NCBI GenBank assembly: GCA_031379235.1 | Contig: JANNEY010000083.1 | Location: 19,693 to 83,692, forward strand | Direction: 5' to 3' | Origin: Opitutaceae bacterium | Lineage (GTDB): Bacteria; Verrucomicrobiota; Verrucomicrobiia; Opitutales; Opitutaceae | Length of the DNA: 64,000 bases | Shown: positions 7,747-60,176 of the stretch, in pieces | Position numbering within the stretch: position 1 is the first letter of the stretch | Layout: the number at the start of each line of letters is the position of its first letter | The notes under the pieces: generated by a model | Database searches by the model: none | Told to the model about the DNA's origin: nothing | What the model saw: the letters and a program-made list of their open reading frames with translations, nothing else | Translations under genes and position numbers: made by a program

Positions 7747-7830
7747 CCTGAAGCCCTCGGAGGACGAGGTCTGGTTGACCGCCGCTACTGCACGCCCGAC
7801 CGCCGACATGTGCCTTGGGCGATGGCTAAC

Positions 7831-7879
7831 AAGAACTGGCGGTTCTTCACCACCTCCATCCTTGCGTCACATCGCAAGG
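7831..7879. promoter_or_regulatory. Two short inverted repeats upstream of the TA operon, possible autoregulatory operators
   Basis: AAGAAC-N5-GTTCTT (7831..7847) and CCTTGCG-N6-CGCAAGG (7860..7879), ending about 20 nt before the ATG at 7898. Confidence 0.4.
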
Positions 7880-7897
7880 CCCTGCACTTTGCGAATC

Positions 7898-8578
7898 ATG
7901 GAGCTGCGCACGATGCCCGCCTACAGCTTGACCGATGCCGCCCGCTGCATTGGCGCGCATCCCGCCACGCTGCGCTCATGGTTCAAAGGCCGCTCCTACC
8001 CCACCAAGGACGGACCACGGCGCTCGCCAAATTTGCTGGTTCCGGCGGCACCGGATGCGCTTTCGTTTCAAAATCTAATCCAAGCCCACGTCGTTCAGGG
8101 CATCCGCAAGCGCTACCACATTCCCATGCATCGGGTCCGCGATGCGCTGAAGTATCTGTCTGAGAGCGTCGGCAATCTCGACCTCCTCGCCTCGGAAAAA
8201 TTCTACCACGATACCGAGCACCTGCTGCTGAAGGTCGAGGATCGGCTGATTTCGCTTTCGGAACGCGGGCAGACGGTGAGCGAGACGGTTCTCGCGCAAT
8301 ACCTGCACCGGATCGACTACGGCAAGGACGGTTTCGCGTCGCGCCTCCATCCGTTTCTCTACACGGCGACAGGCCAGCTCTACGAACCGCAACATATCAT
8401 GATCGATCCGACGATCGGTTTCGGCAAACCCTGCATCGAGCGACTGGGGGTCAAGACGGACATCATCGCCGAACGCTTTCTCGCCGGAGAACCCATCGAG
8501 GAACTCACGGCGGACTATGGAGCCAAGCCCGAGGAAATCCAGGAAGCCATCCGCTGGTCCGCCCGCAAGGCCGCCTGA
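7898..8578 (+). CDS. DUF433-domain antitoxin with N-terminal HTH (VapB45-like)
   Basis: PAYSLTDAARCIGAHPATLRSW (HTH) and IDPTIGFGKPCI...IAERFLAGEPIEELTADYG...IQEAIRW (DUF433). Confidence 0.85.
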   Translation: MELRTMPAYSLTDAARCIGAHPATLRSWFKGRSYPTKDGPRRSPNLLVPAAPDALSFQNLIQAHVVQGIRKRYHIPMHRVRDALKYLSESVGNLDLLASEKFYHDTEHLLLKVEDRLISLSERGQTVSETVLAQYLHRIDYGKDGFASRLHPFLYTATGQLYEPQHIMIDPTIGFGKPCIERLGVKTDIIAERFLAGEPIEELTADYGAKPEEIQEAIRWSARKAA

Positions 8579-8996
8579 GGCTCCGGTCTTTTTCATCGAC
8601 CGCGACACCGGCGGTCGGTTGTTGGCCGCTGCGTTGCGGACCGGAGGTTACCGGATCGAGCTGCACGACGAACATTTCGCGCAGGACACGAAGGATCCGT
8701 TTTGGATTCGCAGCGTCGCCGAGCGGCGCTGGGTCATCCTGACCTGCGACCGCAACATCGCGCGCAAGGAGCCGGAACGCTCACTCTTCTCCGCGGCGCC
8801 GACGCACACGTTCATCCTCTACGCGCTCTCGCACGTTCAACGGGAGCAGCGCGTGCCGCTCGTGCTGGTGGTGTTGCCGAAACTCTCCGCGCTGGTGGCG
8901 TCGGGCGCGGCCCACGGCATCTACCGCGTCCACACGGACGGGAAGATCGAGCACCTGGCGAACATCAAGGCGAGGTTTCGGCTGGAAGATTTTTAG
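8517..8996 (+). CDS. PIN-like toxin (VapC45-like); start uncertain
   Basis: FFIDRDTG...HDEHFAQDTKD..W....AERRWVILTCDRNI pattern; overlaps the DUF433 gene. Confidence 0.78.
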   Translation: MEPSPRKSRKPSAGPPARPPEAPVFFIDRDTGGRLLAAALRTGGYRIELHDEHFAQDTKDPFWIRSVAERRWVILTCDRNIARKEPERSLFSAAPTHTFILYALSHVQREQRVPLVLVVLPKLSALVASGAAHGIYRVHTDGKIEHLANIKARFRLEDF

Positions 8997-11900
8997 ACTC
9001 CGGCGGCTGGAGGAAATCGGCCCAACTGATCCAGCCTTGATGCTTATAGACTGTGGCTGGATTGCGTGGAATGTCCTGCGGTAGATTGCCGCGGATATGG
9101 CACCACTCGGTCCAAGCGGTTCCGGTTTTCAAACCGAGTGTTCGCGCAAGAGCGCGAGCTTCGTCAAATGGGCGAAAGACTTTCTCGAATGGCGCGATGG
9201 TTCCTGTGCCCAGCCAATCCCCCCATCCGCGCCACACATCTCCGTAAACATTTTTCGGATTTCTCGGGATATCGGAAGGACGCGACGGTTTATCGGGGAC
9301 TTCGCCGTTAATGTAACGAGACCAATGAGTCGAACTGGTAAGTTCGAGGCTTTGCACAAAGGCTCGGGCAGAGGAGAATTCTCTGAAGCGGCTAGCTCGG
9401 GTCGCCCGGCGCGGTAATTCGATTCCCAGCCAATCACCCCAGGTAAATCCGGAGGCGGCGTAAGTCTGATTGGGGTTGCGAGGAATGCCGACCGGCATCG
9501 GTGATTGACCCTTGAGTTGGCCTCGGGCGTAACGAGCCCATTCACCGTGAAATCGTAGCCCGAGCGCGCGAACAAAGGCACGGGCCTCAGGATAAGGTAG
9601 ATAAGACCGTTGCTTTCCTGCTGTCTGTCCGTTCCCGAGCCAATCACCATATCCCTCCCACCCCATCCCTTTGTAGTAGTGTTCCGGCCCAGCAGGAACT
9701 CCTGCAAGACGTGGAGGGAGGTGGGGCATCTTTCCTGTGCAGTATCGTCGCCATGCACGTTGGCCAGATAGTTTTAGGCTTCGTGCGAACTCACGTGCCT
9801 TGTCGAAGGCCATCAATGTAAACTCGCCATATTCACCATTTCCACGCCCAACCCAATGGGCCCAATTGATCCAGCCTTTGCCACGATATCCGTGCATTGG
9901 GTTGCGCGGAATATCAGGCGGCAACGGTGGTTTGCCCTCAATTCCTCTCCGGGCGTAAATGCGCCATTCGGTGCCGTCTTTTATTCCTAGTGCTGCAACG
10001 AAAGCACGGGCCTCGTCGTGAGGCCGAAGTTGCTTTCGTGTTGCGGGACGGCGATGGCCGAGAAAGTCACCCCAATCGATCCAACCATTCTTTTCGTAAA
10101 CGCTCGGTGGCGTCTGAGGAATATCGCGAGGAATTTGGCCGGCTTTCCACCGCCTTATCCACTCAGGTTGTTTTGTGATTCCGCTTTGCCGCGCCCACTC
10201 CCGCGCCTCATTGAAGGTGCGATAGTCGAGCTTCGCCATGGTCTCCCAGCATTTGACCTCGATCTTGCTGGCGAATTCATCGGCGTTCACGCCGAGCGGC
10301 GAGACGACATTCGCGAAGTCGAAGTCGACCAAGCCACCCACTTCCGGCGTGCGGCCCGCAGCTATGCCACGGAACCATTCGATGATGCGTTCGTCGTGGG
10401 CCGCCAGCGCGCGCAGAACGAAAAGCACAAATTTAAAGGCACTCGTCGCGGTGACTTCGTCGAGCGTCGCGCCGTCGGGGACGACGAGGGGGAGCAAAAT
10501 GTAGCCACGCGTTTTTCCCGACGCGAGGCGGAGGGCGCGGCCGGCCGCTTGCACAATTTCGATCGTGCTCCCTTTCGGGTCGGCGAAGAAGACGCAGTCG
10601 ATACGGGGCACGTCTACGCCTTCGGTGAGGCAGCGGGCGTTGGTGATCAGTGAAGGCGCAACGGCGAGGAAGTGTTTGATCTCCCGCTGTCGGGCGCCGC
10701 TGCCGAGTTTGCCTGAAACGTGAAAAGCGGGGATCGGCGTCTCGCTTGCGAGGTGCGCGTTCAGATCATTGCAAAGAGCGGTGAAACGGGCCGCGCGAGC
10801 GATGCTGCTGTGGAAGGAAACGGTGTGCCGCACGCCATGGACGGCAGTCGCTCGTCGCAGCGCGATGAGACTGGCGAGGGCCAGCGCGGTGATTTCGTCG
10901 GGACCGTCGGGGCCAAGGTCGAGCCAGCGGTTGGCGGCGACGAGCGCGGCGACATCCGACTGGCGCACGCCGATGGTGAGGATGCGGTAGTCGCAGAGGA
11001 TGGCGGGCTCGGCGGCGATGGCGGCTTTGAACGAGAGCTTGTAGAATTCCTCACCGTAAAGCGCGGGGTCCTCCATCGACACGATGTCGTCAGAGGTGCC
11101 CGCGAAACGTCGCTCGGTGGCCGTCATGAAGAGGCGACGCGGGAGTGGGAGATTGGCGTCGTCGAGGAGATGGGCGAAGACGCCGGCAGCTTTGCCCGTG
11201 GTCTTGTGGGCCTCGTCGAGGACGGCGAAATCGAAGGCGAAGCCGGCGGTGCGCGCGGCGGCGGCGAGGACGGGCGAGCTTTGGTAGGTCGTCAGGACAA
11301 CGAATAGGCTGGGCGTGGCGCTCAGCGTCGTGAGGTGCGCGGCGAGGGCGGCGGGTGCGGTGTCGCACGGGATGCCGAGTTCGTGGACATGGGCGACGGT
11401 TTCCGCGCTTTCGACGCGGGTGACTTCGTCGTCGCTGCAGACGCAGAGCCAGTCGACTGGGCGGTTGTCAGCGAGGGCTTCGCGCATCCATGTCTCAAGC
11501 GTCTGGCGGACGAGGGCGAGGCTGGGGACGGCGATGAGCACGCGCGTCACTGCAAGTTCGCGGGCGATCCAGTATGCGGTGAGACTTTTTCCCGAGCCGC
11601 AGGGGCTGATGAGTTTGCCGCGGGCTTCGTTGCGGTCGCGGTAGTGAACGAGCGCGGCGGCGATGGCGGCGTGTTGGTGGGCTTGAGGAACGCGCAGCAA
11701 CGGGCGCGCGGGCGGGGCGGTGGCGGCGAAAGAATCGCGGAGCGAAGCGAAGAAATCGGGGCCAAGTTCGCTCCACGTTTCCGCGGTGAGATCGCCGAGT
11801 TTTGGGAGGTCCTCGAGGATTCCTGGAATGCGCGCGGTCGTCGTGCAGACGAGGGCGAAGACGATCTCACGGCAGACGGTGAAAGTGAGCGAGGTGAACG

Positions 11901-12225
11901 TCGCCAGCTCGCGGTGAGTGAGTGTGGCGTTGGCGTTGCTCCGATATTTCGCCTGAATGCCCCAGAATTCACCGCTGTGTGTGCGGGCGAGAAGGTCGAT
12001 GCCCTCATCGCGAGGCGGGAAATTCAGGCGGGCACGGAGGTCGGCGGGGACTTCGTGGTGAAACCAGACTTCGGCGAGCTTCGTGCGGTATTTCGGGTCG
12101 AAGCGCAGGTAATGGCGAACGACATGCTCGAAAGCGGTGCCGCGGTCACGCTCGGTGAGCGTGCTGGCGACGGCGATAAAGTCGTCCCATGAATTGATGC
12201 GTTTGAAAATCGGGAGCGGCTGCAT
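8965..12225 (-). CDS. Mrr-like restriction nuclease + SF2 DEAH helicase + six C-terminal tandem repeats
   Basis: FE..V...GIDLL...GIQAKY nuclease motif, SPCGSGKS, LDEAHK, MTATER, LTEGVDVP, QAAGRALR, then six F.EAR.F...LG...W...P..IP.NP..Y...GW..WGDWLG units. Confidence 0.88.
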   Translation of the reverse strand: MQPLPIFKRINSWDDFIAVASTLTERDRGTAFEHVVRHYLRFDPKYRTKLAEVWFHHEVPADLRARLNFPPRDEGIDLLARTHSGEFWGIQAKYRSNANATLTHRELATFTSLTFTVCREIVFALVCTTTARIPGILEDLPKLGDLTAETWSELGPDFFASLRDSFAATAPPARPLLRVPQAHQHAAIAAALVHYRDRNEARGKLISPCGSGKSLTAYWIARELAVTRVLIAVPSLALVRQTLETWMREALADNRPVDWLCVCSDDEVTRVESAETVAHVHELGIPCDTAPAALAAHLTTLSATPSLFVVLTTYQSSPVLAAAARTAGFAFDFAVLDEAHKTTGKAAGVFAHLLDDANLPLPRRLFMTATERRFAGTSDDIVSMEDPALYGEEFYKLSFKAAIAAEPAILCDYRILTIGVRQSDVAALVAANRWLDLGPDGPDEITALALASLIALRRATAVHGVRHTVSFHSSIARAARFTALCNDLNAHLASETPIPAFHVSGKLGSGARQREIKHFLAVAPSLITNARCLTEGVDVPRIDCVFFADPKGSTIEIVQAAGRALRLASGKTRGYILLPLVVPDGATLDEVTATSAFKFVLFVLRALAAHDERIIEWFRGIAAGRTPEVGGLVDFDFANVVSPLGVNADEFASKIEVKCWETMAKLDYRTFNEAREWARQSGITKQPEWIRRWKAGQIPRDIPQTPPSVYEKNGWIDWGDFLGHRRPATRKQLRPHDEARAFVAALGIKDGTEWRIYARRGIEGKPPLPPDIPRNPMHGYRGKGWINWAHWVGRGNGEYGEFTLMAFDKAREFARSLKLSGQRAWRRYCTGKMPHLPPRLAGVPAGPEHYYKGMGWEGYGDWLGNGQTAGKQRSYLPYPEARAFVRALGLRFHGEWARYARGQLKGQSPMPVGIPRNPNQTYAASGFTWGDWLGIELPRRATRASRFREFSSARAFVQSLELTSSTHWSRYINGEVPDKPSRPSDIPRNPKNVYGDVWRGWGDWLGTGTIAPFEKVFRPFDEARALARTLGLKTGTAWTEWCHIRGNLPQDIPRNPATVYKHQGWISWADFLQPPESKNLPAETSP
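9000..10240 (-). repeat. Six ~65-72 aa protein repeats (resemble the phage-integrase repeat unit)
   Basis: Units begin YRTFNEAR, LRPHDEAR, MAFDKAR, LPYPEAR, REFSSAR and RPFDEAR, and each ends in a W..W.D/H-F/W-L/V motif. Confidence 0.8.
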
Positions 12226-12385
12226 CGCGACGGGATTCCTTGGGTGCGGAACAGACTACGGCAAGCCCGCTCGCGAGATCAGCTCAAGGCAACTCCCTCG
12301 CGCGGCCGAGAAATTCGCCCGCTTCTCCAAACCCTCCTCACGCCGCCATTGCCGCCGCTCCCATTCCCGCGCACAACTTCCGTGC

Positions 12386-13005: not shown

Positions 13006-13599
13006 ATGAAAAACTGGAATCTCCTCTTCCGCCGGACGCACCTCTACCTCGGAATGATCATGCTGCCGTGGATGGCGATGTATGCCGTGTCCACGTTTCT
13101 GCTCAATCACGGCGAACACTTCCGGCCCCGCCCCGCCGATCTGCAGTGGCGGCTGCTCTGGGAAAAGGACTACGCGCTCGACGTGCCGCCGGGGACCGAC
13201 GCCCTCCGCGCCACCGCGCAACGCGTGCTGACCGACAGCGGCGTGAGCGGCGGCTTCGGCGTCCAGCGCCAGGGCCAGCGGCTCAACATCAACGTGCTGA
13301 ATTTCTTCGCGCCCACGCGGCTCACCTACGACATCGCCGGAAAAAAACTGCGCGCCGAAACGCGCAATCACACCTGGGCCGAAGTCCTGATCCGTCTCCA
13401 TGAACGCACGGGCTATGGCCGCGGCGGATTTCTCCACGATCTCTGGGCGCTCATCGTCGATTTCTTTTGCCTCGGCCTGCTGGCCTGGATCGCCACCGGC
13501 CTCTATCTCTGGTGGAAACTCTCCGCCGCGCGCCGTTGGGGTTTCATCGCCATCGGCGGCGGCGGCGCCACGATCGTCACGCTGGTCCTCACCCTCTGA
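13006..13599 (+). CDS. PepSY-associated TM helix membrane protein (paralog of upstream gene)
   Basis: RRTHLYLG...LLNH and LIRLHERTGY...WALIVD...TGLYLWW motifs. Confidence 0.75.
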   Translation: MKNWNLLFRRTHLYLGMIMLPWMAMYAVSTFLLNHGEHFRPRPADLQWRLLWEKDYALDVPPGTDALRATAQRVLTDSGVSGGFGVQRQGQRLNINVLNFFAPTRLTYDIAGKKLRAETRNHTWAEVLIRLHERTGYGRGGFLHDLWALIVDFFCLGLLAWIATGLYLWWKLSAARRWGFIAIGGGGATIVTLVLTL

Positions 13600-13654
13600 A
13601 CTGGGCGCGATTTTTTCGTCTTCGGCTGAAATCTTCCGTCCCGCGCTTCTCCGT

Positions 13655-15274
13655 ATGAAAACATTCATCCCCTTCTCCGGCCTCGCCGTCCTCGTCGCCT
13701 TCGTCTCGCTCGTCGCCGGCTCCGGCCCCGCTCTCGCACAAGCCGATCCTGCGCCCGGCTACAAGCAGCGCGTCGCCACCGACGTCGAGGCGATGCGCAA
13801 GCAGACGCAGGTCATGATCGACATGGTGTTCAGTTTCGCGGAGCTCGGCTTCCAGGAATTCGAGACCTCGAAATACCTCACCGGCATCCTCGAGCAAGAG
13901 GGTTTCAAAATCGAGCGCGGCATCGCCGGCATGCCGACCGCCTGGGTCGCCACGTGGGGCTCGGGCCATCCCGTCATCGCCCTCGGCTCCGACATCGACT
14001 GCATCCCGCAAGCTTCGCAGAAACCCGGCGTCGCCTACCGCGATCCGATTGTCGTCGGCGCGCCCGGCCACGGCGAGGGCCACAATTCCGGTCAGCCGCT
14101 CAACCTCACCGCGGCCCTCGCCGTGAAGCGTCTGATGCAGCGCGAGCAGCTCCCCGGCACCCTCAAGCTCTGGCCCGGCGTCGCCGAGGAGCAGCTCGGC
14201 GGCAAGGCCCACCTCGTGCGCGCCGGTGTGTTTCGCGACGCCGACGCCGTGATCTTCAGCCACGTCTCAAACGAGTTTCGCACCACGTGGGGCACCGGCC
14301 CCAACACCGGTCTCGTCTCCGTCGAGTATGCGTTCGCCGGCGAGAGCGCGCACGCCGCCGGCTCCCCGTGGCGCGGGCGCAGTGCGCTCGATGCCGTCGA
14401 GCTCATGAACGTCGGTTGGAACTACCGCCGCGAGCACCTCCGCCTCCAGCACCGCTCGCACTACGTCATCACCAACGGCGGCGACCAACCCAACGTCGTC
14501 CCGCAAAACGCGAGCGTCTGGTATTTTTTCCGTGAGCTCGACTACGAGCATATCAAGGAACTCCACGCCATCGGCGACACGATGGCGCGCGCCGCCGCCC
14601 TGATGAGCAACACCACCATGACCACGCGCGTGCTCGGCTCCGCCTGGCCCGGCCATTTCAACCGGCCTATCGCCGAAGCCATGCACGCAAACATCAAGGC
14701 CGTCGGCCTGCCCGCTTGGAGCGAGGCCGACCTCAAGCTCGCGCGCGCCCTCCAAGCCGAGCTCAAGGCCCCGATCACCGGCCTGCCCCTCGCGCTGAAA
14801 AATCTCCAAGGCCCCGCCACCGAAGAGACGCGCACCGGCGGCTCCGACGACATCGGCGACGTTTCGTGGACCGTCCCCACCATCGTCCTCAACTACCCCG
14901 CCAACATCCCCGGCCTGCCCGGCCACAACTGGGCCAACGCGATCGCGATGGCCACGCCCATCGCGCACCAAGGCACCACCGCCGGCGCCAAGGCTCTCGC
15001 AATGACACTCGTCGATCTGCTCACCAAGCCCGCCCTCGTCGCCCAAGCCCGGGAGTATTTCGAGAAGGAGCAGACGAAAGGGAAAAAATACCAGCCCCTC
15101 ATCGGCCCCGAGGACAAACCGGCCACGTGGCTCAACACCCGCATCATGGCCGACCACCGCGAGGCGATGAAGAAATTCTATTTCGATCCCGCGAAACACG
15201 ACACCTACCTCGAGCAACTCGGCATCGCCTACCCCACCGTGCGCACGGGCGCGGGAGAGCCGGCAAAAAAGTAA
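13655..15274 (+). CDS. M20-family amidohydrolase (AbgB-like), exported
   Basis: Signal peptide, ELGFQEFETS, GSDIDCIP, GHGEGHN, GVAEE, HAAGSPWRGRSALDAVE, GGSDDIGDVSW. Confidence 0.88.
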   Translation: MKTFIPFSGLAVLVAFVSLVAGSGPALAQADPAPGYKQRVATDVEAMRKQTQVMIDMVFSFAELGFQEFETSKYLTGILEQEGFKIERGIAGMPTAWVATWGSGHPVIALGSDIDCIPQASQKPGVAYRDPIVVGAPGHGEGHNSGQPLNLTAALAVKRLMQREQLPGTLKLWPGVAEEQLGGKAHLVRAGVFRDADAVIFSHVSNEFRTTWGTGPNTGLVSVEYAFAGESAHAAGSPWRGRSALDAVELMNVGWNYRREHLRLQHRSHYVITNGGDQPNVVPQNASVWYFFRELDYEHIKELHAIGDTMARAAALMSNTTMTTRVLGSAWPGHFNRPIAEAMHANIKAVGLPAWSEADLKLARALQAELKAPITGLPLALKNLQGPATEETRTGGSDDIGDVSWTVPTIVLNYPANIPGLPGHNWANAIAMATPIAHQGTTAGAKALAMTLVDLLTKPALVAQAREYFEKEQTKGKKYQPLIGPEDKPATWLNTRIMADHREAMKKFYFDPAKHDTYLEQLGIAYPTVRTGAGEPAKK

Positions 15275-15292
15275 ACCTCACCTCCACCCTCC

Positions 15293-16759
15293 GTGATCCC
15301 AACAACACCCCGCTCCCTCACCCTCCTCACCGCGCTGCTGGCCTTCGCGTCCCTTCCGTCGCTTTCTTTCGCCGCAACCGCCCGCCCCCCGAACATCCTC
15401 CATCTCCACGCCGACGATCATCGCGCCGATGGCCTACGTGGGCTCGGCCATCCGCTGCTCGAGACGCCCCACCTCGACACGCTCGTCGCGCGCGGCACGA
15501 CCTTCACGCACTGCTACACGCAGGGCTCGATGGTCGGCGCCGTCTGCCTCCCGAGCCGCACGATGCTGCTCACCGGCAAATCCTGGCGCCGCATCCCCAA
15601 CGGCCGCGACGCCAGCGCCGACGCCTCGCAATCGCTCCCGAAAGTCCTCAGCCGCGCGGGCTACACGACCTTTCACGTCGGCAAGGGCGGCAACGAATTC
15701 ACCGCCGGGCTCAACGCCTTCGACACGAATCTCGTCATGAATGACGGCGGCGCCGAACTGCGCCGCGGCTCGAGCGAGCGGCACGCCGATGCCGCGATCA
15801 AGTTTCTCAAGGAGCGTCCGTCTTCCACTGCCGCCACGCCCGCGAAACCGTTCTACATCTATTTCGCCCCGCCTGTGCCGCACGACCCGCGCGTCGCCGC
15901 GCCCGAATTTCACGGCCGCTACGATCCCAAAAAAATTCCGCTCTCGCCCGCCTTTCTCCCGCAGCACCCGTGGGACAACGGCGACATGGCCGTGCGTGAC
16001 GAACAGCTTGCCCCGTGGCCCCGCACGCCCGAGGACACCAAGCAGCAACTTGCCGACTATTACGCGTGCATCACCGGCCTCGATCACCACATCGGCCGCG
16101 TGTTCGCCGCGCTCAAGGCCGCGGGCGAATGGGACAACACGATCATCATCTTCACCGGCGACAACGGCCTCTCGCTCGGCGAGCACGGCCTCTTCGGCAA
16201 ACAAAACCTCTACGAGTTTGGCGGCATGCACGTCCCGTGCGTCATCGCCGGCCCCGGCATCCCGCACGGCCGCCGCGATGCGCTCGTTTACCTGATGGAT
16301 TTGTTTCCGACGTTTTGCGATTTCGCCGGCGCTAAAATCCCCGCCGGCGTCGAGGCCCACAGCCTCGCCCCGATCATTTACGGCCGCGTGCAAAAAGTCC
16401 GCGACGTCCTCTACACCGGCTACCAAGCCGGCCAGCGCGCGCTCCGCGACGATCGCTGGAAACTCATCCGCTATCCGCTCGTCGACCGCACGCAGCTCTT
16501 CGATCTCGCCGCCGATCCGCTCGAGTTGAAAAACCTCGCCACCGATCCCGCGCACGCCCCGCGCGTCGTGGCCATGACCGCGCTCCTCCAGCGAGAAATG
16601 AAAAATTACGCCGACGACGCGCCGCTCACCGTTGCGAATCCCAAACCCGCCGCATGGACCCCGCCCGCACCCGGCCAAATTCCTGCCGACGCCTCCGCCC
16701 CGAAAAAAGGCAAAGGCAAGGCGGCGCCCAACGCCGCGGGACCAGACCGGCCACGATAA
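15293..16759 (+). CDS. Sulfatase (choline-sulfatase-like)
   Basis: PNILHLHADD, CLPSRTMLLTG, GDNG, HGLFGKQNLY. Confidence 0.92.
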   Translation: MIPTTPRSLTLLTALLAFASLPSLSFAATARPPNILHLHADDHRADGLRGLGHPLLETPHLDTLVARGTTFTHCYTQGSMVGAVCLPSRTMLLTGKSWRRIPNGRDASADASQSLPKVLSRAGYTTFHVGKGGNEFTAGLNAFDTNLVMNDGGAELRRGSSERHADAAIKFLKERPSSTAATPAKPFYIYFAPPVPHDPRVAAPEFHGRYDPKKIPLSPAFLPQHPWDNGDMAVRDEQLAPWPRTPEDTKQQLADYYACITGLDHHIGRVFAALKAAGEWDNTIIIFTGDNGLSLGEHGLFGKQNLYEFGGMHVPCVIAGPGIPHGRRDALVYLMDLFPTFCDFAGAKIPAGVEAHSLAPIIYGRVQKVRDVLYTGYQAGQRALRDDRWKLIRYPLVDRTQLFDLAADPLELKNLATDPAHAPRVVAMTALLQREMKNYADDAPLTVANPKPAAWTPPAPGQIPADASAPKKGKGKAAPNAAGPDRPR

Positions 16760-35997: not shown

Positions 35998-36006
35998 GAC
36001 GTGCGA

Positions 36007-36507
36007 TTACACAGCGACTTGATGACAGCGTTCGGCAAGGTGAAAGAGGCCTTCCGATGTCACTTGGGCTTCCTCTCCTGAGGACTCGATAAAGTAAGTA
36101 GCGCCTTCTGGAGTTAGCGTCACGTTGATCGCCGATCCATCGCGGGCTTCCCACGAGAGTTCAAGGAGACCGTCGTCGGTGACGAAGAGGCTAGGTGGCG
36201 TGTGACTGATCACGAAACGCGCGGCTTCCAGAAATTTTCCGAAATTGTGATAGGTGCCCCAGGCGATCGCCCGGCTGTTCGGGCCGGCCCAACCGTCGGG
36301 CCAGCGGCTGAAATCATGGAACCGCTGCCAAGCCGCATCTCCCAATTTGGCGTAGACGAGGCCGGGGAGTTCGGGTGGCACGCTGCTTTCCATCCACGAA
36401 GTGACATGCGGGATGGTCCATAGTAACGCCGCCTGCGGTGCCAACCATTGGACAACCGAGCCGCGGGTTTGAGGAATTTCAGCAAGGGTGGTCATGGCGG
36501 GAATCAA
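36007..36507 (-). CDS. Hypothetical protein, putative antitoxin
   Basis: Low-structure N-terminus, then W.DGWAG...I...FL...PSLFVTDDGLLELSW. TTGA overlap with the upstream gene; alternative ATG at 36495. Confidence 0.6.
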   Translation of the reverse strand: MIPAMTTLAEIPQTRGSVVQWLAPQAALLWTIPHVTSWMESSVPPELPGLVYAKLGDAAWQRFHDFSRWPDGWAGPNSRAIAWGTYHNFGKFLEAARFVISHTPPSLFVTDDGLLELSWEARDGSAINVTLTPEGATYFIESSGEEAQVTSEGLFHLAERCHQVAV

Positions 36508-37250
36508 TACTCGGGATTAAGAGTGGCGAGGAAAGCCGGTTTTAACAGCTCGCGGAAGAACATTTCTTTTTGAACTTGATGCGCTTGGTCGAAGCGCGGG
36601 ACCGCTTGTTCCCAAAATAATTGAGGGTTCACGGTAAACCCCATGTCCACATCCAGCAGGCAACCTTGTTTGGTGCCTTGGGCTGATTCCAGCAGAGCGG
36701 GAGTGGTAACCTGAACCTGGCAGACATGATTCTGACGTTTCAAATGACTCGTAACCTGCAGCGGTTGATCGACCTCGCTCCGACCGCCGATGAGAAGGTC
36801 AACTTGCAGGCAGGTTTGCAGCGGGTGGCTGAAGAAGTCGGAGTAGCGCAGGCCGAGGCGCTCGGCCACTTTGATCAATTTCAGCGGGCGCAGTTGTCCA
36901 AGCACCCACGTCAGCATTTCGCGATAGACCGTCCAGCCGGGATATTCGCCGGAACCCATCCCGAGGAAGAAACCACGTGGGCCGACGTGGAGCGACAAAT
37001 GTTCGCCGTGCATCACAACGGTGGGGGCGTAACGCAATTCGGGCATTTTGGCACGGGCGGCGTCGGGAATCTGTGCCTGACCCAGTTCCGCCTGCTTCGG
37101 GAAACGGTCACGCACGGCGCTATAAATCAGGCCGGGCACCACGGTCGGACTCTGATCGGTCTGGAAGCGAACCTCGGTGATCGCGTTCACAATCGAGCAC
37201 GGATTGATGCGAGTCGGCAGAGGGGACAACGTGGAGGCGAACTCGGGCAT
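36504..37250 (-). CDS. TIGR04255-family protein
   Basis: IVNAITEVRF, YPGW..Y, RLGLRYSDFF and LLDVD are the characteristic blocks of this family. Confidence 0.75.
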   Translation of the reverse strand: MPEFASTLSPLPTRINPCSIVNAITEVRFQTDQSPTVVPGLIYSAVRDRFPKQAELGQAQIPDAARAKMPELRYAPTVVMHGEHLSLHVGPRGFFLGMGSGEYPGWTVYREMLTWVLGQLRPLKLIKVAERLGLRYSDFFSHPLQTCLQVDLLIGGRSEVDQPLQVTSHLKRQNHVCQVQVTTPALLESAQGTKQGCLLDVDMGFTVNPQLFWEQAVPRFDQAHQVQKEMFFRELLKPAFLATLNPEY

Positions 37251-37282
37251 GACGGGAATGGCGGATGATTAAGCGGAGGCGT

Positions 37283-37582
37283 GGACTAAGCCAAGCCGCT
37301 TGTCGTGGTCGGCTGCGAGGCAGGTTCGGCGTCGGGGGGGTGGAGGGACGAGTGTGCCGGAGAAGGCGCGGGCGAGGAGCGACTGGTTGAGGCCGGTCGA
37401 GCTCGGTCATCGGGGATCTGAAGCGCAGGACACTATGAGCCGCCGGCTTGGCGAAAGCGACCCTCGGGGTCGTGGATGAAGCGCTCGCGGGGGGACGTTG
37501 AGTTTGGCGCGGATTCAGCGAGCAGCGGCCGGATGCAGTCGGCGAACTTCCGGGTGCGATTATCGATGATATCGTGCTGCAT
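37283..37582 (-). pseudogene. Collapsed remnants of a restriction-modification locus (helicase N-terminus + HsdS-like C-terminus)
   Basis: MQHDIIDNRTRKFADCIRPLL (37582 down to a stop at 37433), then frameshifted ELDR/LNQSLLARAFSGTLVP.../DAEPAS (about 37405-37315). Confidence 0.5.
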
Positions 37583-37818
37583 CGGTGCCAATGGAAATGA
37601 TATCGGTGTTCGGTCTCAGTCAAATACTTGGCCAATCGATTCGTTGATTGGACTGCTGTTATTCAAACCCGCTTCGGCGCTCGCCGTTAGAACATCGGGA
37701 CAGCATGGTGCAAACTATCATAAACCAAAACTGTCTGGCCGAGCCACCGCAGTTTGCGTTCACGAACTCGTTTGGATCTTAATAAAAGGAGTCGCGGGCC
37801 GATCCTTCTACTTCCCAA

Positions 37819-39423
37819 CTATCTTACAGTTGTTGCCGCCGCCGCCGCGAGCGGCAGGCGCAGGCCAACCGCTTCGAGATCGTTACGGACGATCAGCAGA
37901 TCGCCGGCGAGCGCGGGAGGATTCCAGGTCTTCGAGGAGAACACGCGGAAGCGGTGCAATTCGTTCGGCCCGGTGGGCGTGGGACGCAGCAAGACGAGTT
38001 CGCCGTTCTCCGCCATCAGTAGAAACAAGTCCCCGACGAGCAATCCCTGGCCGTGGCCGTAGCGGCCTTCTTTCCATTTTTGCGCGCCGTCGCTCAGGTC
38101 GAGACAGACGAACATGCCGTCGTCGAGGCCGTAGAGAAAGCCATCGCGCGCCACCGGATTCGCAAACTTGGCCTTGAGTTTCAACGACTGCCAAACGCGC
38201 TCCGCCGTCAGACGCCCGTCCGTCGCCGCTTTGATCTCGAGCAGCTCGCTGCCGACCCCGTAGCCAGCGGAAAACACCACGCGATCCGGCCCGACCACTA
38301 CGGGCACCGCCACATGCGGATAGCCCCGGCCCCACGGATACTCCCACAGCACGGCGCCGTCCGCAGCGTCATGCGCCGAGATGTGGCGATGGTTGTAGGC
38401 GAGAATCTGGCGGCGGCCGCCGAGCGTGGCGACGAAAGGTGAACCGTAGCCGGCCGCCGCCGTGCCCGCAGCCCAAACGCGTTCGCCTGTGTCGTCGCGG
38501 AATGCGAGCAGGGACTGGTTCGCCGTGCCGCCGGCACTCACGATCACGCGCCCAGCGAGCACCAGCGGCGCGCCCGCGAAGCCCCACTCGGGAACTTTGG
38601 CGCCCGTCTCCGCAACGAGATCGTGCGTCCACTGCACCCGGCCCGTCACGAGATCGAGGGCGTTGAGCCGGCCCGTCGAGCCGAGCGTAAACACGCGATC
38701 GCCGACGACGGTGGGCGTGGCCCGCGGTCCCTCGCCGCCGATGGGATTGTCGTAGCGCGCCGCATCGCCATGCGACCAGAGCGGCCGGCCACTGAGTAGA
38801 TCGTAGCACGTCACGAGCTCGCTCGCTCCGTTCTGTTCCTGCGTCAACGCCCGTCCACCCACGATGGCAAAGCCAGACCAACCGGGGCCAATCTTGTTGC
38901 GCCAGAGTTCGCGCGGTGGGCGCGCGGTCCAGTCGGGATCAAGCGCCGGACCAGTCAGCACCGCATTGCGATCCGGCCCGAGGAATTGCGGGAAGTCCGG
39001 CCGGATGCCAGCCGCGGACAGCGGATCGGGCAGCGGTGCGACGGGGCCAACGCCGAGCGGAGGCGCCGTCACGGGCCGGTCAGATTTCACCCAGCGCGGC
39101 TCGAGGATTGGCACCAAATCGCCGCTGACGCCGCGGACGCGAAACATCCCCGCACCCAACCCCAGCACGCCGAGGACGCCGAGCGTCACGCCCAGCCGCA
39201 GCCGCCACCGCGCACGCGAAAAGCACGTCCACCAAATCAGCAGCAGTCCGAACGCGCCGAGCAAGATGCCCATCGACGTCATGTTTTTCTGCTGAAATGT
39301 CGTCGTGTCGCGGAGCCGCACGACCGCGAGCGCGACCGTCGCGGCCGCCAGCAGCAGCCCCGCCGGCCACAGGCGAAGTGGCGGCCGCGAAGGTAAGTGG
39401 GAACGGCCGTGGTCGTCGGTCAT
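37819..39423 (-). CDS. Membrane-anchored PQQ-binding-like beta-propeller protein
   Basis: Three N-terminal TMs, DFPQFLGPDRN, GWSGFAI, GPRATP, GYGSP. Confidence 0.85.
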   Translation of the reverse strand: MTDDHGRSHLPSRPPLRLWPAGLLLAAATVALAVVRLRDTTTFQQKNMTSMGILLGAFGLLLIWWTCFSRARWRLRLGVTLGVLGVLGLGAGMFRVRGVSGDLVPILEPRWVKSDRPVTAPPLGVGPVAPLPDPLSAAGIRPDFPQFLGPDRNAVLTGPALDPDWTARPPRELWRNKIGPGWSGFAIVGGRALTQEQNGASELVTCYDLLSGRPLWSHGDAARYDNPIGGEGPRATPTVVGDRVFTLGSTGRLNALDLVTGRVQWTHDLVAETGAKVPEWGFAGAPLVLAGRVIVSAGGTANQSLLAFRDDTGERVWAAGTAAAGYGSPFVATLGGRRQILAYNHRHISAHDAADGAVLWEYPWGRGYPHVAVPVVVGPDRVVFSAGYGVGSELLEIKAATDGRLTAERVWQSLKLKAKFANPVARDGFLYGLDDGMFVCLDLSDGAQKWKEGRYGHGQGLLVGDLFLLMAENGELVLLRPTPTGPNELHRFRVFSSKTWNPPALAGDLLIVRNDLEAVGLRLPLAAAAATTVR

Positions 39424-55600: not shown

Positions 55601-56485
55601 ATGATCACGCATCCCGCGACCCTCCTCTACGCCGCTGCCGCCGGTCTGGCCGAGGGGCCGGTTTGGCATGACGGTGCGCTTTGGTGGGTCGATATCAACG
55701 GCGGCACTTTTAATCGGCTCGACCCCGTCACGCTCCACAACGAGGCGCGCGCTACTGGCGCCTACACCGCCGATGCGGTGCTGTGTGTCGACGGCCGCTG
55801 GCTCATCGCGCAGCATCAGGCGCTCTTCTTCTACGATTGGTCCACCGGCAAACGTGTGCCCCTCGCCTCCGGGCAGCATCCGGTGCTCGGCGCCCGCCAC
55901 CGCTTTAACGACGGCAAATGCGATCCCACCGGCCGCCTCTGGCTCGGCACGCTCAGTCTCGAATCCGCGCCGGCGGAGTGCGCCCTCTTTTCGCTTTCTC
56001 CCGCGGCGCCGACTCGCACGGAGGTCACCGGCGTATCTCTCTCCAATGGCCTGGGTTGGTCGCCTGACGGGCGGACGTTCTACTACATCGACACGCCCAC
56101 GCGGCGAGTCGACCGCTTCGACTACGATCGCGCGACTGGCAGCATCTCGGGTCGACGGCCCTTTCATATTTTTTCCGAAAATGACGGCTGGCCCGACGGC
56201 CTGGCGATTGACGCGCGCGGCCACGTCTGGGTGGCGCTTTATGGAGGCAGCCGCGTGGTGCAGCTCGACGCCGTCGACGGCACGCCGCGCGCGGCGATTC
56301 CCCTCCCAGTTTCACAGGTAACGTCCTGCGCTTTCGGCGGGGCCGACTTGGCGACGCTCTACATTACCACGGCGGCGCAGGAGCTTACCGCTGCGCAACA
56401 CGCTCGCGAGCCCCTCGCCGGCGCACTTTTTTCCGCGCGCCCTGATGTGGCGGGCCAACCCATCGCCAAGTGTCGGATCGGGTAA
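55601..56485 (+). CDS. SMP-30/gluconolactonase/LRE family protein
   Basis: [39 protein letters not shown]. Confidence 0.92.
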
Positions 56486-56519
56486 CCTCGGGTTTCCCCG
56501 CACGCTAAAATTCCAACGC

Positions 56520-56544
56520 TGGCGTCCCCACGGGGATTCGAACC
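56520..56544 (-). mobile_element. att site: displaced 3' end of tRNA-Glu marking the boundary of an integrative island to the right
   Basis: Minus strand GGTTCGAATCCCCGTGGGGACGCCA (T-loop, acceptor arm, G discriminator, CCA). The rest of the tRNA is absent and GC drops on the right side. Confidence 0.8.
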
Positions 56545-56748
56545 GCTAGCAAACTGACAACGGAAAGGCTTCGTTAATCGCGCTTTGAGTTGTTTGTTAG
56601 CGAATTAGAACAAGCGATACGATGCGGAGAGATGCAGCAAAAACAAGGTGGAAACGGAGTGGCTGGCAAATCCGTGGCAATTTTTTTGCCCCGCTTGAAT
56701 CGAATCGCTCCATCCTCGCATTTCACCGCGGGTGCAGTGCGGCCGATG

Positions 56749-57297
56749 TCAGCGTTTCTTGCCTCGAGGATGTTTACTCGCGAACAGCTTTCGCAGTGCA
56801 GCCAACTCTTCGAGGCGAGCTTTCCGGAACCGACGCTGGCGCTCAGCATTGTTTTTTCGTTTCTCTTCGAGCGATTTCGTGGGCCGTCCGGCGCGCAGAT
56901 GGAGCGGAAGATCCACGGATGGCGTGAAGATGTTCCGCCGCTTGAAGGCCGCGGGCGCATGCGCCAACGCCAAGACGCGCAGCGTCGGACTATCAGCGCT
57001 ATGGTCGAAGATCGGGTCCGGCGCTACGCGGTCGGGTGTGAAAGCCCATGCCGGCGCAGCGCGATGGACTTTTTGCGCCAAGTGCTCCGCATAGGCCGCC
57101 AGCCAGGCATCGGCAACGTAGCCCTGCGGGAATTTCTTTTGCAGCCGGGGCGGTTCGTCGGTGATGGCAGCCACGGCTTGGGTGCGCGAAGATGCTCGGC
57201 GTAACTCGTGGAGCCAGTCGCGCAGATTCAGGCCGAACTCGCTGAGCGAGGCGGACTGCTCGGCTACTTCCTTCAAGGATTTTGGGCGTGTGATCAT
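56749..57297 (-). CDS. Hypothetical partner of the DUF6036-like nucleotidyltransferase (putative antitoxin)
   Basis: DAWLAAYAEHLA...P.W...ALAHAPAAFKRRNIF block and ATGA coupling. Basic C-terminal tail GRP...NAERQRRFRK. Confidence 0.65.
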   Translation of the reverse strand: MITRPKSLKEVAEQSASLSEFGLNLRDWLHELRRASSRTQAVAAITDEPPRLQKKFPQGYVADAWLAAYAEHLAQKVHRAAPAWAFTPDRVAPDPIFDHSADSPTLRVLALAHAPAAFKRRNIFTPSVDLPLHLRAGRPTKSLEEKRKNNAERQRRFRKARLEELAALRKLFASKHPRGKKR

Positions 57298-57842
57298 GTT
57301 CGGGCCTGAATGGCACCTTTGACGACCTCCCGGGCTTCGGCCGTGAGCGCATCGTGCGGAAAGAATTTATCGTGGATGGCTTCAGCCTCCTCGGCCGATC
57401 CGATTCCCATTTTTTGCACCAAGAAACGAATGTCCCCGTAATCGCCAGCGTAACCGGGCAAGGGCGGGCGACAGGCGCGAAGTTTCATCGCGAGAAGATA
57501 AGCCGCCGTAGGAATGACGATCCGGATGCCCTCGCCGAAATCGCCCTCAGGCAGGCTGCGCTTAGCCTCCTTCTCGGCTAGAAATTGCTTCACGTCGTCA
57601 TTCAACCAATCTTCAGGCAGGCCGAGTTCAGCCGCCACTTTCGCGGCGAGCGTTTTGCCGATTTCGCTCGGTCGAACCACGGCATCCACATCCTTGGTCG
57701 CGTCGCGTGAGCCATAAACCAGCGTGAATACCGCCCCGCCATAGAGGGAGATTTCGAGCGTTACCTTTTGCTTGTGTGCCAGCTCGCCCAAGCGGCGGAG
57801 CGCTTGGACAATTCGGTTTCGGCTAAGCGGCTCGTAAGGCAC
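57294..57842 (-). CDS. DUF6036-like nucleotidyltransferase
   Basis: LYGGAV...SRDATKDVD (Pol-beta GG...DxD), WLND, LLAMKL.ACR, D..DI.FL. Confidence 0.78.
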   Translation of the reverse strand: MPYEPLSRNRIVQALRRLGELAHKQKVTLEISLYGGAVFTLVYGSRDATKDVDAVVRPSEIGKTLAAKVAAELGLPEDWLNDDVKQFLAEKEAKRSLPEGDFGEGIRIVIPTAAYLLAMKLRACRPPLPGYAGDYGDIRFLVQKMGIGSAEEAEAIHDKFFPHDALTAEAREVVKGAIQART

Positions 57843-58023
57843 AATAAAACGTTACGTAATCAACTATCACTTTCAAGATGATACTTTCACTATTCCTTGG
57901 ACCCCAAAATGCCTGCCAATTCTACGCGCTGGAATCTCTGGCCGATTTATTCGCCCTGCTCGCGGCTCCGGTTCGTTCGACCCATGTGATAATTTCGGCC
58001 TGAATCGCCTTTGGAATCAATAA

Positions 58024-58051
58024 ATTGATACCTTGCAAAGCTGGTATCAAT
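58024..58051. promoter_or_regulatory. 9-bp perfect inverted repeat upstream of the ATPase fragment
   Basis: ATTGATACC-N10-GGTATCAAT in an AT-rich divergent promoter region. Confidence 0.45.
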
Positions 58052-58067
58052 CGCCGTTTTTACAAGG

Positions 58068-58442
58068 ATGATAAGGCGCCGTATTCACGACATACTGGCA
58101 GAATCCATTGAGCAAAGCCCGGCAGTGGGGCTGCTGGGGCCGCGGCAGGTAGGCAAGACGACGCTGGCCTTGGAGATCGGGGAAACTCGCCCGTCCCTCT
58201 ACCTCGATCTCGAGTCGCCGGCCGATCGCGCGAAGTTGTCGGACGCCGGCCGTTACCTCGCTGAGCACGAAAACGAATTGGTCATCTTGGATGAAGTGCA
58301 TCGTGCACCGGAGATTTTCCAAACCCTGCGCGGCCTGATCGATCAGGGGCGTCGGCGCTCCGCAATCTGCCGGTGCTGGCCAAGTAGTTTTCGCCGCTTT
58401 ACAGCGGCTTTGCTCACTGCGAACGCAGCACAGGCTCTATGA
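58068..58442 (+). pseudogene. 3'-truncated AAA ATPase (AAA_14/DUF4143 family)
   Basis: GPRQVGKTT and ILDEVHRAPEIF..LRGLID. Similarity is lost near 58360, far short of the usual length of this family. Confidence 0.8.
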
Positions 58443-59271
58443 ACTTTCGGATCACGGCCACGACTTCGCTGAATTGATCGGTGATCCCGCTGAGACCGTT
58501 ACGCCGCAGGAATGCGGCCCACTGAGCCTGTTTGGTCGGATCGTTGGCGAACGCAGCGGTGAAGACTTCGGGCGATTGAGACAGGTTCGTTTGCCGGCGG
58601 GCAAACGTCGCCTCGATTGCTTTCCGAAGCGTCGGGCCATCGAACTCAAACCGATGCGCCAGGAACCAGACGTCGTGGAAATCTTTCATCCGAGTGTTGG
58701 CGATCCCGAGCTTTACCATCGCCTCGAACTTCTCGGCGACGACGGTGTAAGCCGGATACATGCGAACCTCCGGAGCCGGGAAATCCAAGAGCGCCGGGAA
58801 GGTCGCTATTTCGGGCGCGGGCGTGACGGCATCCCCGACGCCCACGTCGATTTGAACCGGAATCTCCGCTGTGCCGAGTTTGCCCATCAGCCGGACGCGG
58901 ACGCCGCCGTAAGCGTTGTCTTCCCTGATTTCGTCAGCCTGCACGGACTTTGGATCGAAGACGATTCCGTCGTCCACCACGGGCATGGCCACCACCTCTT
59001 GAAATACTCGGGCCAAATCCGCCTTTTCCGAAGGACCGAATTCGAGGAGATCGACATCGCGCGTGGGGCGATGGGTTTTCTCATCCCAAACGACAAATAG
59101 CATCGCCCCCTTGAGCAGGAACCGGTCGGCGTGGGGCGACTGACTCAGTCGGAATAGCAGGCGCTCGATGCCGTAGCGCAGGAGCAGCAGGTTAAAATCT
59201 TCACCGCGTTTACCCGTCACGTTTTGAAGGCGGGCCTTCACCGACGCCGCGATATCTTTCGGTGCGCTCAT
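58414..59271 (-). CDS. abiEii: AbiEii-family nucleotidyltransferase toxin (type IV TA)
   Basis: YGIERLLFRL, FLLKGA, RPTRDVDLL, QIDVGVGD, AEKFEAM, TRMKDFHD. Confidence 0.9.
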   Translation of the reverse strand: MSAPKDIAASVKARLQNVTGKRGEDFNLLLLRYGIERLLFRLSQSPHADRFLLKGAMLFVVWDEKTHRPTRDVDLLEFGPSEKADLARVFQEVVAMPVVDDGIVFDPKSVQADEIREDNAYGGVRVRLMGKLGTAEIPVQIDVGVGDAVTPAPEIATFPALLDFPAPEVRMYPAYTVVAEKFEAMVKLGIANTRMKDFHDVWFLAHRFEFDGPTLRKAIEATFARRQTNLSQSPEVFTAAFANDPTKQAQWAAFLRRNGLSGITDQFSEVVAVIRKFIEPVLRSQ

Positions 59272-59885: not shown

Positions 59886-59961
59886 TTCTAAATTTATGGT
59901 ATGATACCGTAACATCGTTTCAAGACCTATGTGAGGGGCGCTGTTCACGTTTTCGTGAACA
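59867..59961. promoter_or_regulatory. Inverted repeats at the abiE promoter, candidate AbiEi operators
   Basis: TGTTACG (59867) ... CGTAACA (59914), and perfect TGTTCACG-TTTT-CGTGAACA (59942..59961). Confidence 0.5.
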
Positions 59962-60176
59962 AGGCGGAGACCGTGAACGCTATGCCTAAAACTTTCCACG
60001 GGAGAAATTTCAGGCCAGCTCGGCTAAATAGTGCATGAGGCTATCATAACTGATGAGCCGAATGCCGCGCAGGGCTCCGCGCTTACGCAGCACCACGCTC
60101 TTTACTGGCGGTGAGCCATCATTAGCGGGACCGGCAATCGTCAGCTCGTTCAAGGTGCTCCGGGAAAGGCCAGTGA

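Follow-up and report, generated by a model that had tools for sequence, protein, structure and literature searches.

What does a restriction-type nuclease and motor act on when the domains that would modify and recognize its DNA are replaced by a string of repeats? The question is raised by a gene on the minus strand at positions 8965 to 12225 of the window analyzed here, a 64,000-nucleotide (nt) stretch of contig JANNEY010000083.1 from an Opitutaceae bacterium (GCA_031379235.1). Judged from its sequence, the encoded protein is a methyltransferase-less, stand-alone derivative of the Type ISP restriction enzymes, with a six-repeat array in the place of the methyltransferase and target recognition domain (TRD). 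On balance, we lean toward the reading that it is a stand-alone ATP-dependent nuclease-translocase whose array serves as a swappable DNA-targeting module and which acts against foreign DNA, where both DNA binding by the array and restriction are what we infer. That the protein is an ATP-dependent DNA nuclease-translocase we hold more firmly than the reading as a whole, and the nature of the ligand less firmly. The gene is probably a one-gene weapon against foreign DNA. Its parts, with the evidence that placed each of them (SF2, helicase superfamily 2; ORF, open reading frame; AF2, AlphaFold2; pLDDT, predicted local distance difference test; aa, amino acids), are as follows:

8965..12225, minus strand: whole gene, 1086 aa plus stop, with Mrr nuclease, SF2 motor and six-repeat array (ORF translation and domain matches)
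11716..12225, minus strand: Mrr-family PD-(D/E)xK nuclease domain, aa 1-170 (Pfam Mrr_cat_2; catalytic set E33, D73, D77, Q91, K93)
10306..11715, minus strand: SF2 helicase-like ATPase/translocase, aa 171-640 (ResIII and Helicase_C; PADLOC; LlaBIII; Foldseek)
10231..10305, minus strand: helical linker between motor and array, aa 641-665 (helix 648-666 in the AF2 model; one recombination breakpoint lies inside)
10036..10230, minus strand: repeat 1, aa 666-730 (repeat alignment; pLDDT >90 in the C-terminal model)
9823..10035, minus strand: repeat 2, aa 731-801 (repeat alignment; C-terminal model)
9610..9822, minus strand: repeat 3, aa 802-872 (repeat alignment; C-terminal model)
9397..9609, minus strand: repeat 4, aa 873-943 (repeat alignment; most divergent unit relative to the G016 ortholog, 30-46% identity in this stretch)
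9184..9396, minus strand: repeat 5, aa 944-1014 (repeat alignment; C-terminal model)
8968..9183, minus strand: repeat 6 and short disordered tail, aa 1015-1086 (alignment; the only stretch with a weak INT_rpt match)

A nuclease and motor of the Type ISP kind

Pfam placed Mrr_cat_2 at aa 42-134 (E = 1e-12), ResIII at aa 180-370 (E = 1e-10) and Helicase_C at aa 479-567 (E = 2e-8), and NCBIfam gave helicase matches below threshold only. The HMMER-type domain search proposed in the original prediction thereby recovered all three domains, with the repeat family INT_rpt below its cutoff in the target itself. The Mrr-like D...QAK nuclease noticed from the letters alone was borne out, with motifs F32-E33, D73-E-G-I-D77 and Q91-A-K93. 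A mutagenesis paper on LlaGI gives its Mrr-family motifs as E38, D74-x-G-x-D78 and Q92-x-K94 (PMC2790908), and E33, D73, D77, Q91 and K93 of the target align with LlaGI E38, D74, D78, Q92 and K94. The helicase motifs, likewise said to be complete, were all found: Walker A G210-S-G-K213-S (210-214), DEAH (337-340), TAT (368-370) and motif VI (559-566). Across an alignment of 58 homologs, D77, Q91 and K93 of the nuclease are invariant, as are G212, K213, DEAH, TAT, Q559, G562, R563 and R566 of the motor. The retention of these key residues indicates that both catalytic activities are conserved and fits purifying selection. By its conserved motifs, the protein thus appears to carry an intact Mrr-family nuclease and an intact SF2 motor of the double-stranded DNA (dsDNA) translocase type.

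A profile of the 58 full-length homologs, searched against the PDB, matched LlaBIII (4xqk; E = 5e-102, query positions 12-612) and LlaGI (5ffj; E = 2e-80), and Foldseek of the full-length AF2 model (mean pLDDT 83.3) returned 4xqk_A as its top match (E = 1e-33). The N-terminal 612 residues are homologous to Type ISP LlaBIII and LlaGI, as the original prediction had proposed for the N-terminus. An Mrr-family nuclease with D-x-G-x-D...QxK followed by an SF2 translocase, in the same order on one polypeptide, is common to the Type ISP enzymes and the target.

Presumably true Type ISP enzymes occur nearby in the taxonomy. Two ORFs of 1666 and 1855 aa, one from the same genus (G017:C23:461855-463732, locus L004) and one from the same order (G029:C319:15318-17198, locus L003), match only aa 24-616 of the target at 34% identity. 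Separately, on a conjugative plasmid of Rhodococcus ruber (L097, 97-8920), SIR2-family and ATP-binding genes are followed directly by a gene for a DEAD/DEAH helicase of 1655 aa whose N-terminus is Type ISP-like.

An array where the methyltransferase would be

The defining features of Type ISP enzymes include a γ-class methyltransferase and a TRD (PMC3874165). Type ISP enzymes carry these at the position held by the array in the target, which lacks both the γ-class N6-adenine methyltransferase and the TRD and has six INT_rpt-like repeats at aa 666-1086 instead. The PADLOC REase_MTase_IIG model matched at positions 15-643 of 1646 (E = 1e-89) with nothing past 643, and no methyltransferase was found in the protein by Pfam, NCBIfam or PADLOC beyond aa 643. 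ORFs supported by G+C content at third codon positions (GC3) between 2327 and 16759 encode sulfatases, a dioxygenase, an esterase-like protein, DUF433, PIN_10 and PepSY_TM proteins and an M20-like protein, with no methyltransferase among them. The claim that none lies in the gene or nearby therefore held, and it extends to the relatives: at 78 other loci, a methyltransferase was found neither as a conserved neighbor nor in the Pfam tally of nearest neighbors.

A conserved partner (methylase, split TRD or immunity protein) was considered and ruled out, as no neighbor family occurs in more than six loci and no partner recurs. Proteins that join the repeats to a helicase and Methyltransf_8 could have supplied a methylase half bearing the same repeats; this counterpart is missing from the source genome, since the target is the sole repeat-carrying protein in the 6.47-Mb assembly. 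Without a γ-class methyltransferase, there is no methylation-based protection of host DNA, and the target is therefore not a restriction-modification enzyme; lacking two of the defining features (methyltransferase and TRD), it is not a Type ISP restriction-modification enzyme in particular.

Sequence and predicted structure of the repeats

The six Trp-rich repeats of ~70 aa seen in the original prediction are confirmed as six units of 65-72 aa starting at aa 666, 731, 802, 873, 944 and 1015 and running up to the C-terminus. Identity to the first unit is 33-41%, and columns of A, R, W, P, P and Y are invariant throughout. The array contains 24 Trp in 431 aa (5.6%) and is strongly basic (pI 10.06, net charge +24); the nuclease and motor are near neutral. 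A six-unit profile found 7,293 cluster representatives at E ≤ 1e-3 and 1,837 at E ≤ 1e-30 among 1.84 billion, which places the repeats far beyond chance. Conservation across 2,793 unique units is found at A9, R10, L16, L18, W24, P39, I42, P43, P46, Y50, G54, W55, D60, W61, L62 and G63; at approximately nine further positions a basic residue is commonest, and many positions are hypervariable.

AlphaFold was run again on aa 645-1086, this time with 47 arrays, and the resulting C-terminal model had a mean pLDDT of 88.7 and a predicted template modeling score (pTM) of 0.43. Each unit is predicted to form two helices of ~10 residues, a proline-rich loop and two short helices. Confidence exceeds 90 within units and falls to ~58-72 in the linkers; together with the low pTM, this indicates that the array is likely to consist of independent four-helix beads on flexible linkers rather than a solenoid. 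Searches for a solved relative of the repeat gave only chance-level matches by sequence profile against the PDB and nothing below E = 3.4 by Foldseek of the C-terminal model; a match to topoisomerase V was marginal and not significant. No fold of a modified-base reader was recognized in the array by Pfam (on the isolated array) or Foldseek. Short matches of the repeats to Exonuc_X-T_C/ExoI_C, DUF6058, DUF7336 and GIDA_C_1st, none of which passes alone, were taken as compositional. In a viral structure library, the best match to the array was A0A292GIR6 (309 residues; E = 7e-6), which has the same length as ORF338 of phage XacN1, the identity of the two being unconfirmed; lower matches were weak and fell on SF2 helicases of giant viruses.

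The array as a distant member of the INT_rpt family

Against the Pfam family INT_rpt (PF14882, formerly PHINT_rpt), the target scores 13.5 bits (E = 0.089) as an isolated array and 16.3 bits in the genome search, so that its own units fall short of the 26.5-bit gathering threshold. Proteins that the array retrieves as homologs (E as low as 0) do carry PF14882, such as P0002 (49.6 bits), P0186 (49.5 bits) and P0207 (53.1 bits). Because these array homologs pass the Pfam threshold, the target units are best described as diverged, distant INT_rpt members. The Pfam model has 55 residues and aligns only at its own positions 10-32; the actual unit has 65-72 aa, and the model represents the repeat units poorly.

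The INT_rpt proteins, including fusions to Integrase_2, thus belong to the same repeat family as the target array. P0175 joins six units to Integrase_2, in agreement with the earlier remark that similar repeats occur on integrases. Other carriers of the unit include proteins with N-terminal repeats followed by ResIII, Helicase_C and Methyltransf_8, DEAD helicases with repeats and no nuclease, and repeat-only proteins. Jumbo phages XacN1, Xoo-sp13, CM1 and RAS14 and a 485-kb uncultured phage encode repeat proteins without a motor.

Three of the methyltransferase fusions (P0089, at L100 8001-12866; P0240; P0261) have N-terminal repeats, ResIII and Helicase_C and a Methyltransf_8-type methyltransferase and lack a nuclease; the L100 gene adjoins phage tail genes. 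In XacN1, ORF338 (L012 2782-3711) consists of a Lys/Arg-rich tail, two repeats and a C-terminal domain of ~100 aa and sits between RNase H/DNA polymerase genes and a NUDIX gene; no PDB relative of its C-terminal domain was found. A 12-unit repeat-only protein in Lentisphaerae (L098 1829-6769) lies ~1.8 kb from a DUF433 and DUF5615 pair, the same kind of toxin-antitoxin (TA) pair as at the target, which may be coincidence.

Exchange of the array independently of the motor

Among six-repeat proteins, motor and array identities are decoupled, with pairs at 96% and 63%, 88% and 48%, and 75% and 39% identity in motor and array, respectively. In sliding windows, the target and its L018 relative are ~90% identical across aa 26-625 and 40-48% identical from aa 650, the drop falling at aa 626-651. 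Compared with the G016 ortholog, identity is 56-60% at aa 1-300, 88-96% at aa 326-825 and 30-46% at aa 851-950. For 16 proteins, the maximum-likelihood trees of motor (aa 20-640) and array (aa 656-1075) disagree with strong support, and neither data set accepts the tree of the other (delta log likelihood 635 and 622; approximately unbiased test, p = 2e-69 and 4e-49). Array branches are generally longer than motor branches. These patterns show that recombination exchanges the array separately from the motor and that a sharp breakpoint lies where the two join.

Within the close clade, the best match of each unit lies at the same ordinal position, yet the closest relative differs by unit, a pattern consistent with blocks being exchanged by homologous recombination. 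In distant six-repeat proteins, a search for positional orthology of the six units found none (same-index 0.31 versus 0.167 expected by chance). Positional correspondence is thus largely lost there, and the six positions are not anciently specialized. Overall, the array evolves like a specificity module. A parallel exists among the Type ISP enzymes: one report puts the similarity of LlaGI and LlaBIII at >95% over the first three domains (PMC3553950), so that the differing part would be the C-terminal TRD, just as arrays differ behind similar motors in the family of the target.

A large and widespread family

At least 1,490 proteins came up in a search with the array; of the 120 listed, most combine Mrr, ResIII, Helicase_C and repeats. 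From 398 confirmed relatives, at one genome per species, we kept the 80 loci that matched over the full length. Their hosts span Verrucomicrobiota (including Opitutales/Opitutaceae, the lineage of the window), Lentisphaerae, Planctomycetes, several proteobacterial orders, Campylobacterota, Bacteroidota, Melainabacteria, Desulfobacterota and Leptospirales. Repeat copy number ranges from 4 to 14, six being commonest. The family is neither rare nor unique to the source genome; it is large and uncharacterized.

When 823 neighboring ORFs from 79 loci were clustered, the top family occurred in six loci only. Among 137 nearest neighbors, Pfam identified three Fic and two Phage_integrase proteins and no methylase; PADLOC identified four SoFic, three PDC-S24 and one each of IetA, UzuA, pAgo/SIR2, PDC-M32A, PDC-S05 and Type IIG. 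Approximately 13 of the 137 thus match PADLOC defense models, a modest number, given here as a raw count. The commonest single neighbor family is of the Fic/SoFic type (3/137 by Pfam and 4/137 by PADLOC), for example at L010 8792-9943. More distant members lie amid IS21/resolvase/terminase-like genes, in runs of small hypothetical genes or near Fic/MazE, and eight IMG/VR viral contigs carry full-length relatives.

In "Candidatus Rubidus massiliensis" (L099 4119-9926), an insertion sequence with DDE_Tnp_1 interrupts the second repeat of a member with ~11 repeats, and an apparent "repeat-only" protein is in fact the 3' half of this gene for a nuclease, motor and array. The surrounding island also holds a tyrosine integrase, AlpA and AbiEi/AbiEii.

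Proposed mechanism and known systems

The original prediction held that the repeats replace the methyltransferase and TRD as a modular recognition array. Replacement in position stands; recognition has indirect support from the basic array, the copy-number range of 4 to 14, the bead model, the fusions to integrases and helicases, and the recombinational swapping. We infer that the array binds DNA and chooses the target from its charge, its architectural position, its fusion partners and its module-like evolution. The fusion contexts of the repeat are all DNA-acting: Integrase_2, SF2 helicases with or without Methyltransf_8, jumbo-phage proteins and, weakly, giant-virus helicases. The wider reading as a weapon against foreign DNA also draws on the accessory status of the gene, with TA genes flanking both the target and its G016 ortholog, on the relative in the integrase/AlpA/AbiE island, on the neighbors that match PADLOC defense models, and on SauUSI and HmaA as functional precedents.

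In the mechanism that we propose, the array would bind DNA and select the target, and its engagement with target DNA would license ATP hydrolysis. The motor would then translocate along dsDNA, and the Mrr nuclease would nick or cut on stalling or on collision with another enzyme, as in the Type ISP enzymes and SauUSI. Our analogy here is the Type ISP model of translocation and cleavage as presented in two reports (PMC4666363, PMC3553950). As there is no cognate methylase, the choice between self and non-self must lie in what the array binds, and we suggest that its ligand is most likely a base modification or another non-host feature. Functionally, the protein would be a Type IV-like ATP-dependent restriction enzyme, and recombinational swapping of whole arrays or single repeats could re-tune its specificity.

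A functional parallel is SauUSI (PDB 7clg), an ATP-dependent Type IV enzyme in which target recognition activates ATPase activity and translocation (PMC7913695). SauUSI carries a nuclease, an SF2-like motor and a C-terminal recognition domain on one chain with no methylase, an outline that the target shares, and Foldseek finds its motor structurally similar to that of the target (E = 4e-11). In contrast, the nuclease of SauUSI has another fold and its methylated sites are read by one TRD, whereas the target has an Mrr-type nuclease and belongs to a family with arrays of 4 to 14 units. HmaA, a fusion of a Snf2 helicase and a PD-(D/E)xK nuclease, needs both its helicase domain and its nickase activity against phage (PMC11232893). 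Like the target, it is a helicase-nuclease fusion; unlike the target, it uses another helicase family, has a C-terminal nuclease, lacks a repeat array and belongs to a three-gene locus.

Alternative explanations

Several observations weigh against a targeted weapon against foreign DNA. Close orthologs elsewhere are single genes amid housekeeping genes (one adjoins Fic), and the immediate neighbors at the 79 loci are mostly unrelated to defense by Pfam. No full-length member was found on PLSDB plasmids, where the only matches were Type ISP-like and N-terminal. PADLOC-DB v2, a check suggested at the outset, gave partial REase_MTase_IIG/REase_MTase_I matches and short PbeA Helicase_C matches, and it did not recognize the target as a known system; no partner genes were found in the window or as a recurrent family at the other loci. 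In the literature, no functional work was found on PF14882 or on the nuclease-motor-repeat architecture. With no solved relative for the repeat fold, the case for DNA binding comes down to charge and fusion partners. Finally, a methylase-free translocating nuclease must spare host DNA, and no means for this is evident.

The absence of a methylase and of any obvious sparing of self DNA would suit an abortive-infection or protein-sensing enzyme, whose array binds a phage protein or non-DNA ligand and unleashes the nuclease-motor on any DNA, including that of the host. Repeat arrays are common as protein-recognition scaffolds, the fast turnover of the array fits an arms race with phage proteins, and the stand-alone jumbo-phage repeat proteins could be decoys. 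However, the array has a strongly basic charge, its fusion partners include integrases and helicases, which require DNA-binding modules, and it is modeled as flexible beads, not as the rigid solenoid surfaces typical of protein-binding repeats; we regard protein sensing as unlikely. A nuclease-helicase for DNA repair, recombination or replication restart, with repeats that anchor it to forks, gaps or a protein such as SSB and with no role in conflict, would be expected to show vertical, conserved inheritance. Instead, the gene occurs in two of 25 same-genus genomes (including that of the window), here in an indel island with a TA pair (described below), and its array is swapped and diverges more than the motor between orthologs. 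RadD and XPB are the next solved relatives of the motor after the Type ISP enzymes, yet LlaBIII matches at E = 5e-102 and RadD at E = 2e-13. Some orthologs do sit amid housekeeping genes, and the repeats show faint matches to the C-terminal region of exonuclease I, but these ExoI_C matches are short, below threshold and probably compositional. A repair function therefore seems quite unlikely.

The gene might also serve mobile elements or phages, through competition between elements, superinfection exclusion or degradation of host DNA, with the array targeting competitor or host DNA. The eight viral contigs point this way, as do the relative in the integrase/AlpA island, another amid IS21/resolvase/terminase-like genes, and the repeat-helicase-methyltransferase variant beside phage tail genes; the low GC3 of arrays in high-GC hosts (below) could likewise mean a foreign gene pool. 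Against this, the island in the window has no integrase or phage genes, most of the 80 loci have no adjoining mobile-element genes, and the viral contigs are short. We consider this improbable; its mechanism overlaps that of a DNA-targeted restriction enzyme and differs only in the beneficiary. That the repeats are purely structural, acting in oligomerization or as a spacer while targeting resides in the motor and nuclease, appears very improbable. The conserved positions are mostly of the core type (A, L, W, P, Y, G) and no DNA-binding fold was recognized, yet the copy-number range of 4 to 14, the junction-specific recombination and the re-use on unrelated enzymes are hard to reconcile with a passive role, and many surface positions are hypervariable.

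If, as we favor, the array does the targeting, the family would represent a widespread and unstudied way of aiming a well-understood restriction motor without a methylase, a new class for the defense catalog and a first function for the INT_rpt repeat. A bolder proposal, which we consider unlikely, is that INT_rpt units are a new modular DNA-reading domain, with 4 to 14 beads shuffled for new specificities, and that the target represents a methylase-free, Type ISP-derived class of restriction. If this were true, each bead would read a short DNA stretch or a modified base, and the family, with thousands of members in many bacterial phyla, would be an unrecognized class of restriction enzymes that can be reprogrammed by shuffling. 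Integrases, other helicases, jumbo phages and giant viruses would draw on the same reader. Protein engineers, too, would take an interest in a modular DNA reader composed of independent 70-aa beads, and natural chimeras with ~90% identical motors and ~45% identical arrays already exist. Should the enzyme prove to be a repair helicase instead, the finding would be of modest interest. The copy-number range, the independent exchange of the array, the GC3 anomaly and the 4.6-kb island with its empty site are new here.

A small accessory island with a putative toxin-antitoxin pair

The target lies in a short insertion relative to the closest same-genus genome (G001), which comprises the following:

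7747..12375, no strand assigned: accessory island of 4.6 kb with the DUF433 gene, the PIN_10 gene and the target; absent from G001
7898..8578, plus strand: DUF433-domain protein, putative antitoxin (Pfam DUF433, E = 5e-10, at the C-terminus; start inferred at the in-frame ATG at 7898)
8517..8996, plus strand: PIN_10 (PIN-like) putative toxin (Pfam PIN_10, E = 2e-18); convergent with the target and overlapping its 3' end by 32 nt

In G001 (G001:C241, locus L096), the esterase-like and PepSY_TM genes lie ~31 bp apart and form the empty site; window positions 7747-12375 are therefore an indel island that contains only the TA pair and the target. Neither direct repeats nor att-like sites were found at its ends, and the island contains no integrase or phage genes. 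In the same-genus comparison of synteny, the flanking genes were mostly on different contigs, and G001 alone gave a clean empty site. The G+C content is 0.59 at 8001-10000, compared to ~0.645 for the window. Of 24 other same-genus genomes searched, only G016 has an ortholog (73% identical), which lies between PIN-domain genes, DUF6978 and DUF1828/1829. The target gene is thus a solitary, accessory, patchy and horizontally mobile unit without an obligate partner.

Low GC3 of the repeat-coding DNA

Within the target gene, GC3 falls from 0.79 in the motor (10306-12225) to 0.53 in the array (8968-10230). Across the window and L016-L095, array GC3 in high-GC genomes is ~0.45-0.65, compared to host-like values of 0.75-0.90 in the motor. 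The drop occurs in 70 of 79 loci, with a mean gap of 0.23 in 47 high-GC loci and 0.03 in 13 low-GC loci. A recent chimera in the source genome was rejected as the cause, as all five orthologous genes of the initial comparison (the window and four others) show the drop, and so do the 70 of 79 loci compared later. Amino acid composition was rejected as well: the expected GC3 is 0.817, the observed value is 0.529, and the drop is shared by almost all amino acids. The units have a nucleotide identity of 0.462 to one another, compared to 0.504 ± 0.008 under host codon usage, and none of 500 simulations reached the observed value; the longest nucleotide repeat shared between units is 24 nt. Candidate explanations are selection against recombination between tandem units, a shared and horizontally circulating pool of arrays of lower G+C content, and slow-translation codons that aid the folding of each bead.

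Other insertions in the window

A second indel relative to G001 spans 13592-15366, where an M20_dimer-containing gene (13400-15274), which sits between PepSY_TM and a sulfatase in the window, is missing from G001 and 88 nt are found instead. Elsewhere in the window (~0.645), stretches at 36001-38000 and 56001-60000 have a G+C content of 0.58-0.60, which suggests other accessory insertions.

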